Below, piece after piece: positions 698-33,742 of a stretch of DNA of 37,503 nucleotides. Under the pieces are notes generated by a model, which saw nothing but the letters and a program-made list of their open reading frames with translations, did no database searches and had not been told where the DNA came from. The stretch is from a virus (lineage: Duplodnaviria > Heunggongvirae > Uroviricota > Caudoviricetes), in the IMG/VR virus record IMGVR_UViG_2513237219_000007, positions 1-37,503 of that record; one strand, written 5' to 3'. The translations under genes were made by a program, and so were the position numbers. Position 1 is the first letter of the stretch. The number at the start of each line of letters is the position of its first letter.

Positions 698-1060
698 GGG
701 GCTGATTCTGGATTCGACGGGATTTGCGAAACCCAAGGTGCATGCCGAGGGGCGGTTGGCCTCGTAAAAAGCCGCAAAAAATAGTCGCAAACGACGAAAA
801 CTACGCTTTAGCAGCTTAATAACCTGCTTAGAGCCCTCTCTCCCTAGCCTCCGCTCTTAGGACGGGGATCAAGAGAGGTCAAACCCAAAAGAGATCGCGT
901 GGAAGCCCTGCCTGGGGTTGAAGCGTTAAAACTTAATCAGGCTAGTTTGTTAGTGGCGTGTCCGTCCGCAGCTGGCAAGCGAATGTAAAGACTGACTAAG
1001 CATGTAGTACCGAGGATGTAGGAATTTCGGACGCGGGTTCAACTCCCGCCAGCTCCACCA
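698..1060 (+). ncRNA. ssrA: tmRNA (transfer-messenger RNA, SsrA), 363 nt
   Basis: Starts GGGGCTGATTCTGGATTCGACGGG; internal tag reading frame GCAAACGACGAAAACTACGCTTTAGCAGCTTAA (787..819, ANDENYALAA-stop); tRNA-like 3' end GGTTCAACTCCCGCCAGCTCCACCA. Confidence 0.95.
1016..1060 (+). repeat. attL: 45-bp ssrA 3'-end core shared with attR
   Basis: ATGTAGGAATTTCGGACGCGGGTTCAACTCCCGCCAGCTCCACCA occurs identically at 36064..36108. Confidence 0.85.
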
Positions 1061-23765: not shown

Positions 23766-25175
23766 TTACTCATCTACTCTGATTTTTTGTTTTTTATTAT
23801 TTTGAGTTAAGACATTTATGGTAATAGATGTATACGGATGAAAGTCAGGAACTATACTTTTAACCTCTCCATTTTCAAGAAAATGATGTGCTATTGAAGG
23901 AAATAAATCAGGATCTACAGGATATTTAGCATTAGGATTATGATACATATTTAAACCTTCTGCCCATGTTTCTGTAATATCGCCTTCTTTCACTTCAAAA
24001 CTAAATGCTGCTGGATATAATGCCTCTGGGTCATGATCATGGCAGTAACCACTCCTAAATAATCTAAGGTCACTTCTTCCAAAACCAGCCAGTTTTCCCA
24101 TCCGATTAAACTTCGATATAGTACCACTATTAGAACTAAGGACGGCCGAAATATTTTCAGACTCATCCAAGAAGAAAAAGCCTGAAGGAATTTCCTTTTT
24201 CTCAAATTGATGCGATATAATTTTCTTAGTTGCTAAACTGTAACATCCATCTTCAGATTTAACATGCTCATAGCGAATACCATAAAGATACTGCCAAAGT
24301 GCACTATGGGACCAAATCATAGAGTTTGGTTCATGAAAATCAGCAATTGCGAAAATTAAAGGATTCCCCTTAACATGTTCTAGATCCCAGTATCGAGTTT
24401 TCTTTTTCAGTTTAGAATAGAGAGAACTTCCAAATTTAATCGGCATATAATTCTCTATTTTCTCTAGCAATTCTTCCTTACTTTTAGGTTCTGATAGCAT
24501 TTCAGATGATTGATTAATATCATTCCCTGTTGGATTAACCGTTACAGCTTCAATGCAAATAGTATTACCATACTTACGTGCCACATAATCAGGGGCATTA
24601 AACTGCCTATCTAGCCAAAAGTGTTCCTCTCGTAAATATGCGAAAAGATATAACTCCCATAGCCGGGCATCAAAACCTGTTGTCTGAAACTGCTCTATAA
24701 AATTCCCGTCGACATCCTCAAAATGATTCATCATTTCCTTGATTATCCCTGTTGCAGGCGACCAGTTCGCGTATTTACCAAATAATGAAAAATGATGATG
24801 AAGTTTATCTGGTGTAACTATAGGTGTGAATAAATCCATTGCTTTATAAGTTTCATCACCTTGTGGAAATACTTTTACGTTTAATTTAGTATGCTTCCGC
24901 ATTAATTTCTTTAGTTTTGCTCGTGCAGAATTCATTTCTGAAACACTAGTAAATAGGTCAATACATCTATATCTCCCACTTAAGTCTCTTGCTAAAACAA
25001 TACCGCTATAATCTTCATCGATTTGATCCAATAATAGTGCCCCTAGCAGGAACTCTCTCGGACTACAGTACCACTCAAACTCATAGCCTAAAAGTTCAGT
25101 ATTTGGCATTCTGGTCCAATCAACAAAAGCATTAAACCTCTCTTTACTCATTTTTTTTATATCAAGAAAAGACAT
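23766..25175 (-). CDS. Hypothetical protein, AT-rich cargo gene between portal gene and putative cos (candidate defence/accessory gene)
   Basis: 469-aa ORF with strongly AT-rich codon usage (roughly one-third GC by eye) against a GC-rich phage backbone; GAGG RBS; no family recognised by me. Confidence 0.6.
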   Translation of the reverse strand: MSFLDIKKMSKERFNAFVDWTRMPNTELLGYEFEWYCSPREFLLGALLLDQIDEDYSGIVLARDLSGRYRCIDLFTSVSEMNSARAKLKKLMRKHTKLNVKVFPQGDETYKAMDLFTPIVTPDKLHHHFSLFGKYANWSPATGIIKEMMNHFEDVDGNFIEQFQTTGFDARLWELYLFAYLREEHFWLDRQFNAPDYVARKYGNTICIEAVTVNPTGNDINQSSEMLSEPKSKEELLEKIENYMPIKFGSSLYSKLKKKTRYWDLEHVKGNPLIFAIADFHEPNSMIWSHSALWQYLYGIRYEHVKSEDGCYSLATKKIISHQFEKKEIPSGFFFLDESENISAVLSSNSGTISKFNRMGKLAGFGRSDLRLFRSGYCHDHDPEALYPAAFSFEVKEGDITETWAEGLNMYHNPNAKYPVDPDLFPSIAHHFLENGEVKSIVPDFHPYTSITINVLTQNNKKQKIRVDE

Positions 25176-25272: not shown

Positions 25273-25291
25273 GCTCGTATCCCCGCCACGC
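25273..25291. other. Candidate cos site (cohesive-end region)
   Basis: Minus-strand GGCGTGGCGGGGATACGAG resembles the P2/186 19-nt cohesive end as I recall it (GGCG[A/T]GGCGGGGAAAGCA...); lies between the replication/SOS genes and Q as expected. Confidence 0.4.
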
Positions 25292-25341
25292 CTGCCCGCT
25301 TTATGTAGTGGTTTTCATGCACCTGCATGATCTACGCAAAA

Positions 25342-25361
25342 GCCCGCCAGTTCTGGCGGGC
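25342..25361. terminator. Hairpin downstream of the tum/DinI-like operon
   Basis: GCCCGCCAG-TTC-TGGCGGGC followed by TTTTG on the minus strand. Confidence 0.45.
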
Positions 25362-25496
25362 CTTAGCAAAAACGATCCTCAAACGATCATGCGATCTCAT
25401 GCGGCATAGACATGCACTACAGAGCTAACGCCTCGCAAGGGCTCGTTGTTCAACCTTGCTGACGCCAGAAGCAAGTTCAGACGCCAGCAACGTTTC

Positions 25497-25730
25497 TTAA
25501 TGCAGCCAGCTGTCGTCTTCCCACACCTTCTGCATAATTTTCATCACTTGTTTTCTTTCTTCGTCCAGTTGCAGTCCGGTTAGTTCCACACCGTTAGAGC
25601 TACCTTTGCGAATGCGAATTACCGTTTTGGGATACAGGGGGCGCAGATTGCGGTAAAGCTCGGATTCAAGGGCGTCCAGGGTAGACTGGCTAATCTTCTG
25701 CTCTTTATCGATCATTATTTCAATGCGCAT
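25497..25730 (-). CDS. DinI-like domain ORF (probable C-terminal part of a tum-like SOS antirepressor)
   Basis: MRIEIMIDKEQKISQSTLDALESELYRNLRPLYPKTVIRIRKG...WEDDSWL resembles E. coli DinI; coordinates start at the internal Met. Confidence 0.75.
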   Translation of the reverse strand: MRIEIMIDKEQKISQSTLDALESELYRNLRPLYPKTVIRIRKGSSNGVELTGLQLDEERKQVMKIMQKVWEDDSWLH

Positions 25731-25740
25731 AAAAGTCACC

Positions 25741-25929
25741 TCAGCTGATGACATCCATTGAGCGGTTGTATTCGTGGGTTCTGATTTTTGCCATGAGTTC
25801 ATCAGTCAATTCAGAAACCCACTGCAGAGCCAGCCCCTTCTCTTCATCACTACACTCACTAGCCGCTACAAGCTTAAGAAAAAAATCAATGCGCTGGAGC
25901 TTCAAAGACTCCAAAAAATAGTCCTGCAT
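25741..25929 (-). CDS. tum-like N-terminal ORF, first gene of the LexA-boxed operon (possibly fused to the DinI-like ORF in the intact gene)
   Basis: 62-aa ORF from an internal ATG preceded by AGGAGG; LexA box lies about 40 bp upstream; overlaps the DinI-like frame. Confidence 0.55.
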   Translation of the reverse strand: MQDYFLESLKLQRIDFFLKLVAASECSDEEKGLALQWVSELTDELMAKIRTHEYNRSMDVIS

Positions 25930-25971
25930 CTTTCCTCCTATGACACCACACGCAATGCTGTATGCATAACC

Positions 25972-25990
25972 ACTGTTTATATTTACAGTA
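25972..25990. promoter_or_regulatory. LexA (SOS) box
   Basis: ACTGTTTATATTTACAGTA = CTGT-N8-ACAG with AT-rich spacer, matching the E. coli LexA consensus TACTGTATATATATACAGTA. Confidence 0.8.
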
Positions 25991-26073
25991 TATAATAATC
26001 TTACTGATGTAAAACGATTTTTTACGTTCATCAGCCTGGTATTATTAAGAGCACGAATTGTTAACCCGCGTAA

Positions 26074-28497
26074 TTAATACAGGTTCCGCCACTGATCATC
26101 TTCCTGCAAACGCTGGTTCCGATAGAAGATACGCAGGCCTGCTCCTGACGGAATACTGCCTCCGCGAAGGAGTAAATCGACCTCTTTCTCGCTGCCATCA
26201 AATCCTCTGGACTTCAGCTCATACACGAGCTGCAGTCGCTGATGGTCTGTAATTCGCTGTTTGTAGTCTTTACGCCGTTTCGGTTTCACCAGGCGTAACC
26301 TTGCTGCCAGTTCCCGGCGCTCTTTTTTGCTCATACTGTGCAGGTAATCGTGCAACTCCTTGTCATCCATGCTGGTAATGTCCGTTCTGGGGTCCCCATC
26401 AGCTGATTTATCTTTCTCCTGTTGGTTCAAATTTTCAGCAAGGGGACAGTTATTGCCACGAGTCCAAGGGGCGCAAGCGCCCTGGTCGGCTGCCGCCTCC
26501 TGAACGTCAACGGCTTTACGAACCATTTTCCACTTCACTGCATGAGTGCAGATCTTGCCCTCTGCAATGGGTGACCAGATGCCATAAATACGAATGCCGT
26601 GATCGCCATAGGCGGTCGGCTCTTCGTTAATTTCATAAGCTGTTCTGATAAGGTGATATTTGCGGGGAACCAGCACGCCGCCCTGCTTCATGATGTAGGT
26701 GGCAAAACAGCCAGCATCAGCAGCAGCCAGGATGGCATCAAGGCGTGGGTTATCCAGTACCGGCGCACCTGCTTTTTTGTCCCCCTGCTGCCTTGCCGCC
26801 TGACCAGCCAGCAATCGCAGTTCACGGTAAGCCTGACGCCCCGGAATACCAAAGAAGCGGAATTGCTGAACACGATGCAGAGACGCCCAGGCATTAACGT
26901 ATTCAGCGTTATCACGCAGGGATTTACCCGTTTCCTTGCTGATCTCACCAGCCAGACCACGCCCGTCAATGTTCTTACTGATGTATTTCGCGATGTAGCT
27001 TGTTGGCGTACCTTTGCGCGGGTTTATCAGCTCAGACTTAAAGCGTGGTCCCGTGTTATTACCCAGCTCCTCGCGGTCTTCACGAATGGAAAACTTACGC
27101 AACAAAGCAGTAATGGCTCGGCGATCTTTTTTGCGCATAAAACACAACAGGTGCCAGTGAACTGTACCGTCATGATGCGGCTCAGCCACCCGCACGCCAT
27201 ACCAGCGCAATCCAGCTTTGTGCATCGCTTTACGAAATGCAGCAAACATGCCGACCAGATAATCACTGCTTTGTCTTACCGTCGCGTTTGTCCAGGTCGG
27301 GTTTGGTCTGCCGTTATTTAGCGTGGAATGGAAACGTGACGGACAGGTGATGGTGTAGAAAACGGCGCAGTCACCGCGCATTTCCGCGATAAGCTCCAGA
27401 CCTTTAACACAGGCCATCATCTCATTGCGGCGATGCGCAGGGTTGCTGCTGCTGGCGTTTACCACGTCTTCCATATCCAGCGTGTCGCCGTCTTCGTTCA
27501 CCAGTTCATGAGAACGAAAAAACTCCAGCGACTTACGGCGCTGCTCACGTTTATGCATCACGGCTTCATAGCTGACATAGGGAGATGCTTTTTTGCTGAC
27601 CAGGCAGACAGCGCGCAACTGCTCTTCCCGCCATTCGCAACGCATCTTCCATAATTTCCGATACCACCAGTCGGCGCACAACATACGCGCCAGCGAACCC
27701 GGAATGAGTTCATAGGGCACGGGTTTACGGCGGTTTCTTTTCCGGCGGAGTTGCTCAAACGCAGGTGGAATGACATCCAGTCGCAGGGTTTCTGCTGCCA
27801 CCCTTTCCCATGTCTTGCGGATTTCTTCTGGCTTAACGTCATCGGTGGCATACAAATCACCACAAGCGTCATCAAGACACATGCTCATATGCGCAGCGAC
27901 AAGGGTAGACAGGCGTTTCACCTGATCCTGACTCATTTCAGGCAGGATCAGCAGACCGTCCAGCCCTTCATGGCTTGCCATAAAACGAAAAGATGCAGAT
28001 AGCTGGCTGTCGCGTACATGCTCCAGTCGTTCCAGACATGGCTTAATCGTCTCACGCAAATAGCGGGAATAAGCCTTTGGCCTGCCCAGGCTGCTGAAAT
28101 ATTCAATACGTTGCATCAGCGGCTTGCTGATATGGGAAGGCTGGGCGTTGACGTCAGCCAGAATGACCATGTCCGGATTAAAACGCTGCTGCTCATGCGC
28201 CAGCTTTGCCCGACTAATGAGCTTATCCTGCTCCATTTCGCGCTGGACAGGATCACGGGATTCATTAAAGAAATAACGCTCCCAGACCTGATCACTCAGT
28301 ACCTCGCGGCGCAGGTGTTCCTGCTCGTTATCGGCAGCGTACAGAGCGATCAGGTTTGAAAGCGCAGAAACTGAAGATTGCTCTTCTGTCCCTACGTAAG
28401 GATTGATTGCTTTTTTCTCAGCATTCCAGGAATAGCTGTAGTTCATTACGCAATCTCCAGTTCGAGCTGTGAAGGCTGCAAACCATTCGACAGCCAA
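26074..28497 (-). CDS. Replication initiation protein gpA (rolling-circle nickase)
   Basis: 807-aa ORF with the tandem-tyrosine motif YIAKYISK characteristic of P2 A-type initiators. Confidence 0.85.
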
Positions 28498-32701: not shown

Positions 32702-33742
32702 ATGACCATCAGAAAACAGCCGAACGGAAAATGGTTGTGTGAGTGCTATCCCAATGGACGCAATGGTAAGCGCGTGCGTAAGCAATTTGCTACCAAAGGC
32801 GAAGCCATTGCGTTTGAAAGCTTCACAATGGAAGAAGTGAACAAAAAACCATGGCTAGGGGAAAAGGAAGATCGGCGACATCTATCAGAATTAATTGAGC
32901 TGTGGTATTCCCTGTATGGTCAAACACTCGCAGACCCCAAGCGCCTCATGGCGAAACTTAGAATTATCTGTAATGGTCTAGGCGATCCCATCGCCTCAGA
33001 ACTGACAGCTGGTGAGTTTACGAAATACCGCGAAGCACGGTTAAAAGGTGAAGTACGAAATGAAGATGGCACGCTTATGTCGCCCGTTAAGCCCCGCACG
33101 GTAAATCTTGAACAGCGCAACCTATCATCTGTTTTTGGTACACTGAAAAAGCTGGGCCACTGGTCAGCCCCCAACCCGCTTGCTGGGCTGCCAACATTTA
33201 AAATTGCTGAGGGTGAATTGGCGTTCCTGACCCCGGAAGAAATTAAACGTCTGCTGGATGCCTGTGCTGATTCTCAAAGCCCCAGTCTGCTGATGATTGC
33301 AAAAATATGCTTGGCCACCGGCGCACGCTGGAGCGAAGCCGAAAACCTACAGAGTCATCAGGTATCAAAATACCGTATCACTTATACCAAGACTAAAGGA
33401 AAGAAAAACCGAACAGTGCCTATTTCAAAGGATTTATATGAAGAACTGCCTAAGAATAGGGGAAAATTATTTACACCTTGTAGGAAAGCTTTTGAACGTG
33501 CGGTAAAACGAGCTGGTATCGAGCTACCAGAAGGGCAATGCACACACGTATTACGACATACATTTGCAAGTCACTTTATGATGAATGGCGGAAACATACT
33601 GGTGCTGCGCGATATTCTGGGCCATGTCGATATAAAAATGACAATGATTTACGCCCACTTCGCTCCCGACCATCTGGAAGATGCTGTAACCAAAAATCCT
33701 CTTGCTAACCTTGGATGGAGAAAATTAGAAAGTGCTTGTTAA
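32702..33742 (+). CDS. int: Tyrosine integrase (P2/186 Int family)
   Basis: 346-aa ORF with the catalytic region HVLRHTFASHFMMNGGNILVLRDILGHVDIKMTMIYAH. Confidence 0.9.
   Translation: MTIRKQPNGKWLCECYPNGRNGKRVRKQFATKGEAIAFESFTMEEVNKKPWLGEKEDRRHLSELIELWYSLYGQTLADPKRLMAKLRIICNGLGDPIASELTAGEFTKYREARLKGEVRNEDGTLMSPVKPRTVNLEQRNLSSVFGTLKKLGHWSAPNPLAGLPTFKIAEGELAFLTPEEIKRLLDACADSQSPSLLMIAKICLATGARWSEAENLQSHQVSKYRITYTKTKGKKNRTVPISKDLYEELPKNRGKLFTPCRKAFERAVKRAGIELPEGQCTHVLRHTFASHFMMNGGNILVLRDILGHVDIKMTMIYAHFAPDHLEDAVTKNPLANLGWRKLESAC

Follow-up and report, generated by a model that had tools for sequence, protein, structure and literature searches.

The question raised by this locus is whether the induction gene of a prophage has been broken by a frameshift or whether it exists as two separate, intact genes. 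The window, by which we mean the whole stretch of DNA that was analysed (37,503 nucleotides), carries two minus-strand ORFs behind a LexA box. A sequence-only reading had proposed that these are the halves of a single gene resembling tum of phage 186, and that the gene may be frameshifted in the assembly within a run of five A nucleotides (the A5 run). Our analysis indicates that the locus is very probably an SOS-induction operon with two intact genes, carried by a Fels-2-type (P2/186-like) prophage that is located beside ssrA. Two features fix its surroundings.

698-1060: ssrA (tmRNA), which the prophage adjoins
26074-28497, minus strand: replication gene A, 807 aa (Pfam Phage_GPA PF05840, E 4.9e-127)

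Genes for CI, a Cox/Apl-like protein, a CII-like protein and an integrase are present according to PHROG matches, the gene order is that of 186, Fels-2 and PSP3, and the module lies downstream of gene A. An Rfam search of the whole window returned the tmRNA only, with no RNA family in the 3ˊ region of the operon. The earlier description of a LexA-controlled Tum/DinI module in a 186-style P2-like prophage therefore stands on the LexA box, the DinI domain, the CI/Apl/CII genes and homology, although Fels-2-style is the more exact term. The control region of the module contains the following elements.

26008-26013, minus strand: TTTACA, −35 hexamer of a p95-like SOS promoter, assigned from conservation and from the annotation of the 186 p95 promoter
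25985-25990: TACTGT, the first half of the LexA box and the candidate −10 element, as in 186 p95
25971-25990, as read on the minus strand: LexA box TACTGTAAATATAAACAGTG, which agrees with the consensus TACTGTATATATATACAGTA at 17 of 20 positions

Following the minus strand from gene A, one encounters an A-rich tract, TTTACA, a 17-nt spacer, TACTGTAAATATAAACAGTG, a leader of about 40 nt, tumA, and finally the dinI-like gene. Apart from the 20-mer, nothing in the 37.5-kb window comes within three mismatches of the LexA consensus, and 100 shuffled sequences contained no such match, which bears out the earlier claim of a near-consensus box upstream of both ORFs. Because the bare core CTGT-N8-ACAG (25973-25988) arose by chance in 42 of 100 shuffles, the significance of the box rests on the full 20-mer and on its conservation in relatives. 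In a comparison of 45 loci that takes in 186 and PSP3, a LexA-like box with no more than one core mismatch is found upstream of the tumA homologue at every locus when judged by eye, and at 42 of the 45 when scored by script. The hexamer TTTACA (or TTCACA) occurs 17 nt upstream of TACTGT, a distance that is fixed in nearly all 45 loci with a spacer that is variable in sequence. The gene immediately after this LexA box and the promoter that it overlaps is tumA, and both the −35 element and the box are conserved. This layout, with a −35 hexamer and a LexA box over the −10 element, is the same as that of the annotated 186 p95 promoter. A sigma-70 consensus scan with strict rules called no promoter at the operon, and we therefore infer the promoter from its conservation and from the 186 p95 annotation. 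The −10 element TACTGT is weak here and is likewise weak in 186 p95.

The coding features downstream of this region are as follows.

25934-25939, minus strand: Shine-Dalgarno sequence AGGAGG of tumA (AGGAGG-N4-ATG, with the ATG at 25929)
25741-25929, minus strand: tumA, predicted antirepressor gene, 62 aa (MQDYF...MDVIS), including the TGA stop codon at 25741-25743
25785-25789, minus strand: A5 run within GCA AAA ATC (Ala47-Lys48-Ile49), ordinary coding sequence of tumA
25737-25742, minus strand: Shine-Dalgarno sequence GAGGTG of the dinI-like gene, overlapping the tumA stop codon (GAGGTG-N6-ATG, with the ATG at 25730)
25497-25730, minus strand: dinI-like gene (tumB type), 77 aa (Pfam PF06183)

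Two minus-strand ORFs do exist, as the sequence-only reading had it, but the overlap that it saw between them results from taking maximal ORFs. The longest-ORF readings span 25741-26031 (96 aa) and 25497-25802 (101 aa) and overlap one another. The ATG of the 96-aa ORF (26031) is upstream of the −35 element of the promoter, and the start of the 101-aa ORF is inside tumA and has no ribosome-binding site. When the starts preceded by Shine-Dalgarno sequences are used, tumA and the dinI-like gene are 10 nt apart and share no nucleotides.

The second ORF is DinI-like, as had been suggested. Its product matches Pfam PF06183 over the full profile (positions 1-63 of 63) with an E value of 6.6e-23 and 81.3 bits against a curated cutoff of 24.2, which is the full-length domain match expected of a DinI protein of about 80 aa. 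It also matches PHROG 189 (E 1.5e-29) and the E. coli DinI structure 1GHH (E 2.7e-6, residues 1-75). From family membership only, the protein might be presumed to bind RecA filaments and to modulate the SOS response.

The product of the first gene, TumA, matches PHROG 698 along its full length (E 3.6e-38, positions 1-62 of 63), and searches of Pfam, PADLOC and PDB sequences with TumA gave no match. An AlphaFold2 model depicts a two-helix hairpin with helices at residues 2-23 and 28-61 and a mean pLDDT of 89.9. When this model was compared with the PDB by Foldseek, generic helical hairpins alone were recovered, with E values of at least 1.3 and no specific structural relative. A protein search with the 62-aa sequence identified 484 proteins. 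Among the 120 relatives listed of these 484, a length of 62 aa is by far the commonest (43 proteins), none exceeds 109 aa and none contains a DinI domain. The listed relatives come from Salmonella, Escherichia, Klebsiella, Pectobacterium, Raoultella, Enterobacter, Lonsdalea, Kosakonia, Citrobacter, Pantoea, Erwinia and others. Most annotations of the 62-aa antirepressor read 'hypothetical protein', and in some databases its relatives carry the label 'levan regulatory protein'.

The A5 run itself varies among these relatives, where the corresponding codons include GCG AAA ATC, GCG AAG ATT, GCC AAG ATC and CGT AAG GTC, among others. The first three of these break the run by synonymous changes, so that the residues Ala-Lys-Ile are kept. 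Downstream of the run, the C-terminal tail AKIRxHEYxRSMDVxx is retained as protein in frame 0, and the stop codon occupies the same position in the alignment. We evaluated selection with 37 distinct orthologues of 62 codons, drawn from species-representative genomes as well as from phages. The pN/pS ratio is 0.13 for the body of tumA and 0.31 for the tail (codons 49-62) in frame 0, compared with 1.03 and 1.30 for the tail in the other two frames. These ratios show strong purifying selection on tumA along its whole length, in frame 0 also beyond the A-run.

Such data can be set against the proposal that the phage really encodes one Tum protein of 143 aa, with an extra A called in a homopolymer by assembly or sequencing error. 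Removing one A in silico does fuse the two ORFs into a protein of 143 aa, close in size to 186 Tum (146 aa) as the sequence-only reading had anticipated, and the alignment that it called for shows the fusion to be collinear with 186 Tum, with 46 identities over 150 columns. Homopolymers are prone to error, and one related database record, that of phage 500465-1, has several indels in this region, for which reason it was left out as a comparator. However, a 535-bp segment comprising the module is found in 1125 of 5426 complete E. coli genomes, and at least 12 independent genomes, including S88 and MS7163, are 100% identical to the window over the 535 bp. In E. coli, PGAP annotates the module as two genes, a 'hypothetical protein' and a 'DinI-like family protein', with no pseudogene call. 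Homologues with two genes are found in Fels-2, PSP3, E. coli HS, 40 species-representative genomes and about 1100 complete E. coli genomes, and both the run and the junction between the genes are shared with Fels-2 and E. coli HS. The 62-aa length and a stop at the same codon hold across genera, selection purifies frame 0 past the run, and the run varies synonymously. The hallmarks of a frameshifted gene, which are homologues with a single ORF and conservation of the downstream frame after the shift site, were not found. Together with the inducibility of E. coli HS described below, these observations speak against the claim that the induction gene is frameshifted in this assembly. An assembly error is thus effectively refuted, with a probability that we consider close to nil.

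The Fels-2 prophage presumably adjoins ssrA, as the window prophage does. Its genome (NC_010463) contains the pair STM2728 and STM2726.1, whose products are 98% and 100% identical to TumA and the DinI-like protein of the window, respectively, and the Fels-2 annotation links STM2726.1 to the 'TumB' protein of PSP3. Fels-2 TumA differs at one residue (S62N). The position after gene A, the sequence of the LexA box, the A5 run and the stop-GAGGTGACTTTT-ATG junction are all the same as in the window. Other proteins are also similar between the two prophages, with identities of 93% for CI, 100% for Apl, 92% for CII, 93% for Int and 87% for A. The prophages differ in the cargo that follows the operon, which is STM2726 in Fels-2, whereas in the window the cos region and then the defence gene PD-T7-1 are encountered.

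Experimental evidence is provided by the P2-like lysogen E. coli HS. Its tum gene (ECHS_RS04495) is a 189-nt ORF that is one nucleotide different from tumA of the window (T51S) and has the same A5 run, and it is followed by a DinI-like gene of 234 nt (ECHS_RS04500). The HS prophage resides at another chromosomal site, near rcdA and ybjL, and its annotated CI gene is shorter (570 nt). As described in the Phollow preprint, wild-type cells lyse after mitomycin C treatment, and this lysis is abolished by a delta-tum mutation and likewise by lexA(Ind-) (PMC11195241). The primers used for the deletion, ...GTGGTGTCATAGGAGGAAAG-ATG-TGA-GGTGACTTTTATGCGCATTG, join the ATG straight to the TGA of the 62-aa ORF (PMC11195241). 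The two primer halves are identical to the window at 25927-25949 and 25721-25743. A lysogen with an identical A5 run and junction is therefore inducible, the second observation that the sequence-only reading had named as decisive against a frameshift.

These comparisons also bear on the idea that the frameshift is genuine and fixed, such that the induction gene is decaying in a lineage of prophages that have been domesticated and can no longer be induced. Defects are common among P2-like prophages, and the dinI-like gene is broken at 4 of 44 related loci, which would favour this idea. Arguing in the opposite direction are the low pN/pS ratios of both the body (0.13) and the tail (0.31) of tumA, the good Shine-Dalgarno sequences retained by both genes, and the tum-dependent lysis of E. 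coli HS, which has the same arrangement, in the presence of mitomycin C. Moreover, Fels-2, again with the same arrangement, causes lexA-null lethality according to the title of Bunny et al. (2002), as cited in PMC3121763. Decay of the gene is therefore extremely unlikely.

A two-gene arrangement is also present in PSP3 (NC_005340), where tumA and tumB are located behind a LexA box after gene A, as in the window. The PSP3 annotation describes tumA as 'similar to 5' end 186 tum; UV induction of prophage' and tumB as 'similar to dinI and 3' end of 186 tum'. TumB of PSP3 is 78% identical to the DinI-like protein of the window. Its TumA (60 aa) represents a divergent branch, and the gap between tumA and tumB is 3 nt and keeps the frame. 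When the window TumA family was compared with PSP3 TumA by hhalign, the match fell short of significance (E 0.1 over 19 columns). The tum genes of Fels-2 and PSP3 have been described as split by a stop codon, with the upstream PSP3 product being the antirepressor and the downstream product the DinI homologue (PMC3121763). The antirepressor assignment in that paper is second-hand, being a personal communication of G. E. Christie, with Bunny et al. (2002) also cited there. Papers retrieved by the names TumA and TumB were all unrelated.

The same study pointed out that 186 Tum resembles a fusion between an antirepressor and DinI (Lemire et al. 2011, PMC3121763). Tum of 186 is expressed from the LexA-repressed promoter p95 (Shearwin et al. 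1998, cited in PMC3121763). The 186 locus resembles that of the window in having the LexA box over the −10 element, a position after gene A, an N-terminal antirepressor part followed by a C-terminal DinI-like part, and a CI/Apl/CII switch. The two loci differ in that both halves of 186 Tum form one polypeptide of 146 aa rather than the products of two genes. In addition, the 186 operon continues downstream with orf97, whereas that of the window ends at the cos region. Residues 71-145 of 186 Tum are 41% identical to the DinI-like protein (E 1e-22), and according to the 186 annotation the DinI-like part is also made by itself, from an internal GTG start. The N-terminal halves are more divergent, with about 20% identity between TumA and 186 Tum, and the CI proteins are 32% identical.

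Single-sequence BLASTP did not detect the relationship between TumA and 186 Tum. An hhalign comparison of TumA with the single 186 Tum sequence aligned residues 2-62 on 2-62 (E 7.8e-4, probability 25%), and a profile-profile comparison with the N half of 186-type Tum aligned columns 1-44 on 1-44 (E 3.4e-6, probability 88%). The 186-side profile consisted of the N halves of 186-type Tum proteins plus a Yersinia 'tum protein'. Both sides share the motif hydrophobic-ER(I/V)(D/E) in helix 1, a Cys that is conserved in the loop, and the motif (D/E)(K/R)xxA(L/I)xW/L(I/V)(S/A)E(L/I) in helix 2. These comparisons, which are of modest strength, point to homology between TumA and the N half of 186 Tum that is detectable only with profiles. 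A search with the N half of 186 Tum produced proteins of 62-117 aa among the 120 listed, many of them metagenome predictions that are cut short or riddled with errors. Long contigs also yielded genuine 'Tum protein' entries of 63 aa, and a full-length Tum of 146 aa was not among the 120 listed matches. This listing was not used to estimate the frequencies of fused and split forms.

It is conceivable that the 62-aa protein is not an antirepressor at all, that induction proceeds through the DinI-like protein or through RecA-mediated cleavage of CI, and that the first ORF has some other role. No Pfam family is matched and homology to the N half of 186 Tum is remote, both of which leave room for this idea. 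Nevertheless, an in-frame deletion of this ORF alone blocks induction in E. coli HS, the upstream gene of PSP3 is reported to be an antirepressor, and tumA is maintained behind a LexA box but without DinI at 19 of 44 loci. We consequently regard a role other than antirepression as very unlikely. The proposed binding of TumA to CI and its requirement for induction are indirect deductions, drawn by analogy from the deletion of the nearly identical HS ORF and from the second-hand PSP3 report. Binding of TumA to its cognate repressor is only inferred because the CI protein of the window (210 aa) is 93%, not 100%, identical to that of Fels-2 and the HS CI is shorter.

The variability of the second gene is informative for another alternative. 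Among 44 loci, the dinI-like gene is intact at 21, broken at 4 and absent from 19, and each of the 21 intact loci has a stop-GGGG/GAGG-ATG junction with a gap of 3-13 nt. The frame of the intact dinI-like gene relative to tumA is evenly distributed, with 7 loci each for 0, +1 and +2. Programmed +1 ribosomal slippage at GCA-AAA-A could in principle generate some fused TumA-DinI protein besides the two separate products. The tRNA-Lys can re-pair on A-AAA-A, 186 makes nested Tum products, and in the clade formed by the window, Fels-2 and HS no stop codon interrupts the DinI frame over the 25 codons that lead back to the run. This open frame exists solely in that clade, which is likewise the only one where a one-base deletion could fuse tumA and dinI, and an open stretch of this length is nothing unusual. 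Relatives do not keep the run, as the AAG and GCG variants show, and the 7/7/7 distribution of frames makes a +1 fusion impossible in most relatives. Even at two loci with the same frame relation as in the window (L010 and L011), the path is closed by a stop one codon upstream of the dinI-like ATG. A stimulatory element, either a slow A-site codon or an upstream Shine-Dalgarno sequence at the correct spacing, is not evident. Neither a conserved slippery sequence nor a fixed frame relation was found, and programmed slippage is very unlikely.

The junction peptide of a hypothetical TumA-DinI fusion would read ...ELMAKSEPTNTT.... There is a very small chance that occasional +1 slippage, confined to the Fels-2/HS/window clade, gives rise to a minor 143-aa fusion that functionally mimics 186 Tum and tunes induction. 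If so, the tum locus would constitute a natural series in which one antirepressor module occurs split, fused or without DinI. Setting slippage aside, we return to the two-gene operon. As judged by sequence comparison, the resemblance of the in-silico fusion to 186 Tum is a matter of gene split or fusion between lineages and no error, and a split or fusion relation to 186 Tum has been noted before (PMC3121763).

Downstream of the dinI-like gene, additional features mark where the operon and the mature phage genome probably end.

25456-25490, minus strand: hairpin UUGCUGGCGUC...GGCGUCAGCAA directly after the dinI stop codon (from the fold of 25325-25500, z = −3.6)
25338-25362, minus strand: GC-rich inverted repeat GGCCCGCCAG/CTGGCGGGCU followed by UUUU, from the fold and part of the cos-flanking region
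25274-25292, minus strand: putative 19-nt cos site GGCGTGGCGGGGATACGAG, right end of the mature phage genome
23766-25175, beyond cos: anti-phage defence gene PD-T7-1, 469 aa (PADLOC, E 1.3e-196)

A homologous hairpin with compensating changes is found directly after tumA in loci that lack DinI, L017 and L027 being examples. Beyond dinI, the sequence can be aligned to the right-hand termini of the linear genomes of 186 and PSP3. The aligned stretch includes three GCATG repeats (25387-25417), the inverted repeat, and then ...ATGCAggtGCATgaaaaccactacataaAGCGGGCA preceding cos. An equivalent repeat, CGCCAGAGCTGGCG, is present at the right ends of 186 and PSP3, and the GC-rich inverted repeat together with its U-tract is the probable end of the operon. 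A search for the 19-nt P2 cos sequence with three or fewer mismatches found none, and cos was located by alignment to the 186 and PSP3 ends. The first 13 nt of GGCGTGGCGGGGATACGAG are shared with the annotated 186 cos sequence GGCGTGGCGGGGAAAGCAT. Because cos is directly downstream, the tumA-dinI operon is the last transcription unit before the putative cos site.

These features suggest how the operon might function. In the lysogen, host LexA would occupy the box over the −10 and start region of the TTTACA-17 nt-TACTGT promoter after gene A, thereby holding the operon off. Upon DNA damage, RecA would become active and LexA would cleave itself. Transcription would then presumably run from a start near 25978 to the inverted repeat, ending near 25338, and give a short bicistronic mRNA. 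Its first cistron would encode TumA, the predicted 62-residue helical hairpin homologous to the N half of 186 Tum, which would bind the prophage CI protein directly and stop it from binding its operators, in the way that 186 Tum acts. Firing of the early lytic promoter would follow, with production of Apl for excision and of the lytic genes. The second cistron, located 10 nt after the tumA stop codon and with its own ribosome-binding site, would yield a DinI-like protein equivalent to the C half of 186 Tum. This protein probably modulates the activity of RecA filaments and would be dispensable for induction. An accessory role of this kind is in keeping with a dinI-like gene that is missing or decayed at 23 of 44 loci. 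The GfoA and GftA operons of the Gifsy phages are comparable in that they are LexA-repressed, combine a small antirepressor with a DinI homologue, and bring about induction by antirepression rather than by repressor cleavage (PMC3121763). They differ from the operon of the window in that dinI comes first, and they belong to lambdoid phages whose repressors and antirepressors are from unrelated families.

What the window contains is a split tum that is functional, widespread and already described, and it raises no new biological question. Its importance lies mostly in annotation, since a longest-ORF reading makes the module look like a broken 186 tum gene. The module occurs in about one in five complete E. 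coli genomes, and because of the label 'hypothetical protein', annotation of Fels-2-type prophages routinely overlooks the induction gene. With its tumA-dinI operon intact, the prophage is predicted to be SOS-inducible, and a clean deletion of tumA would be expected to lock lysogeny, which would be useful for strain engineering and has already been done in E. coli HS.

Split forms of tum, in which the antirepressor half stands as a protein of its own, extend beyond the close relatives of the prophage. Searching with the N-terminal half of the 146-aa Tum protein of phage 186 recovered three stand-alone proteins of 63 aa (P0162, P0172 and P0176) that share approximately 80-85% identity with this half. 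All three are named 'Tum protein' by NCBI and are encoded on long contigs from Salmonella and Kluyvera. The other matches listed include many truncated metagenome calls, and these were excluded from interpretation. The stand-alone relatives indicate that split tum forms are present in the 186-type branch as well.

The record of Escherichia phage 500465-1 (NC_049342, locus L001) carries several single-base indels relative to both the window and Fels-2 at positions 1680-2100, such as 'cattgaataatg' where the window has 'cattgaaataatg'. These fall within tumA as well as dinI and distort the annotated ORFs, and they are probably sequencing errors of this record.

Among the 44 tumA-bearing loci compared, the DinI-like gene is truncated or frameshifted downstream of tumA in four (L012, Serratia; L022, Enterobacteriaceae MAG; L026, Enterobacter MAG; L046, Leclercia) and is missing altogether from a further 19. 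The tumA gene is intact at every locus, including those where DinI is broken or missing, which suggests that the module can do without DinI. In the window, the dinI stop codon is followed at once by a stable hairpin (25456-25490, minus strand). In relatives that lack DinI, such as L017 and L027, the same hairpin, with compensating base changes, instead follows directly after the tumA stop codon (around 1690-1735). The pattern gives the impression that dinI comes and goes as an exact cassette, with the tumA stop codon on one side and the hairpin on the other.

Downstream of dinI is a conserved block (window 25274-25417, minus strand) with the following features.

25387-25417, minus strand: three GCATG repeats
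25342-25362, minus strand: inverted repeat GCCCGCCAG/CTGGCGGGC
25274-25292, minus strand: GGCGTGGCGGGGATACGAG, preceded by ...AGCGGGCA

In the linear genomes of phages 186 and PSP3, the right end and cos align with this block, which is therefore likely to be the cos region used in packaging. Of 44 loci searched with up to seven mismatches allowed, 23, one of them the window, carry the 31-nt GCATG motif, and its distance from tumA differs between loci.

The prophage directly adjoins the tmRNA gene ssrA (698-1060, plus strand; Rfam, 295.8 bits), which encodes the tag peptide ANDENYALAA, and the integrase gene (32702-33742) is located at the opposite end. A 469-aa ORF (23766-25175, minus strand), with the putative cos site on one side and the portal gene on the other, matches the PD-T7-1 anti-phage defence protein over its full length (PADLOC PDLC04073, E = 1.3e-196). 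This ORF also matches PHROG 8571 and has no match in Pfam. Its site is a cargo position of the P2-like prophage.
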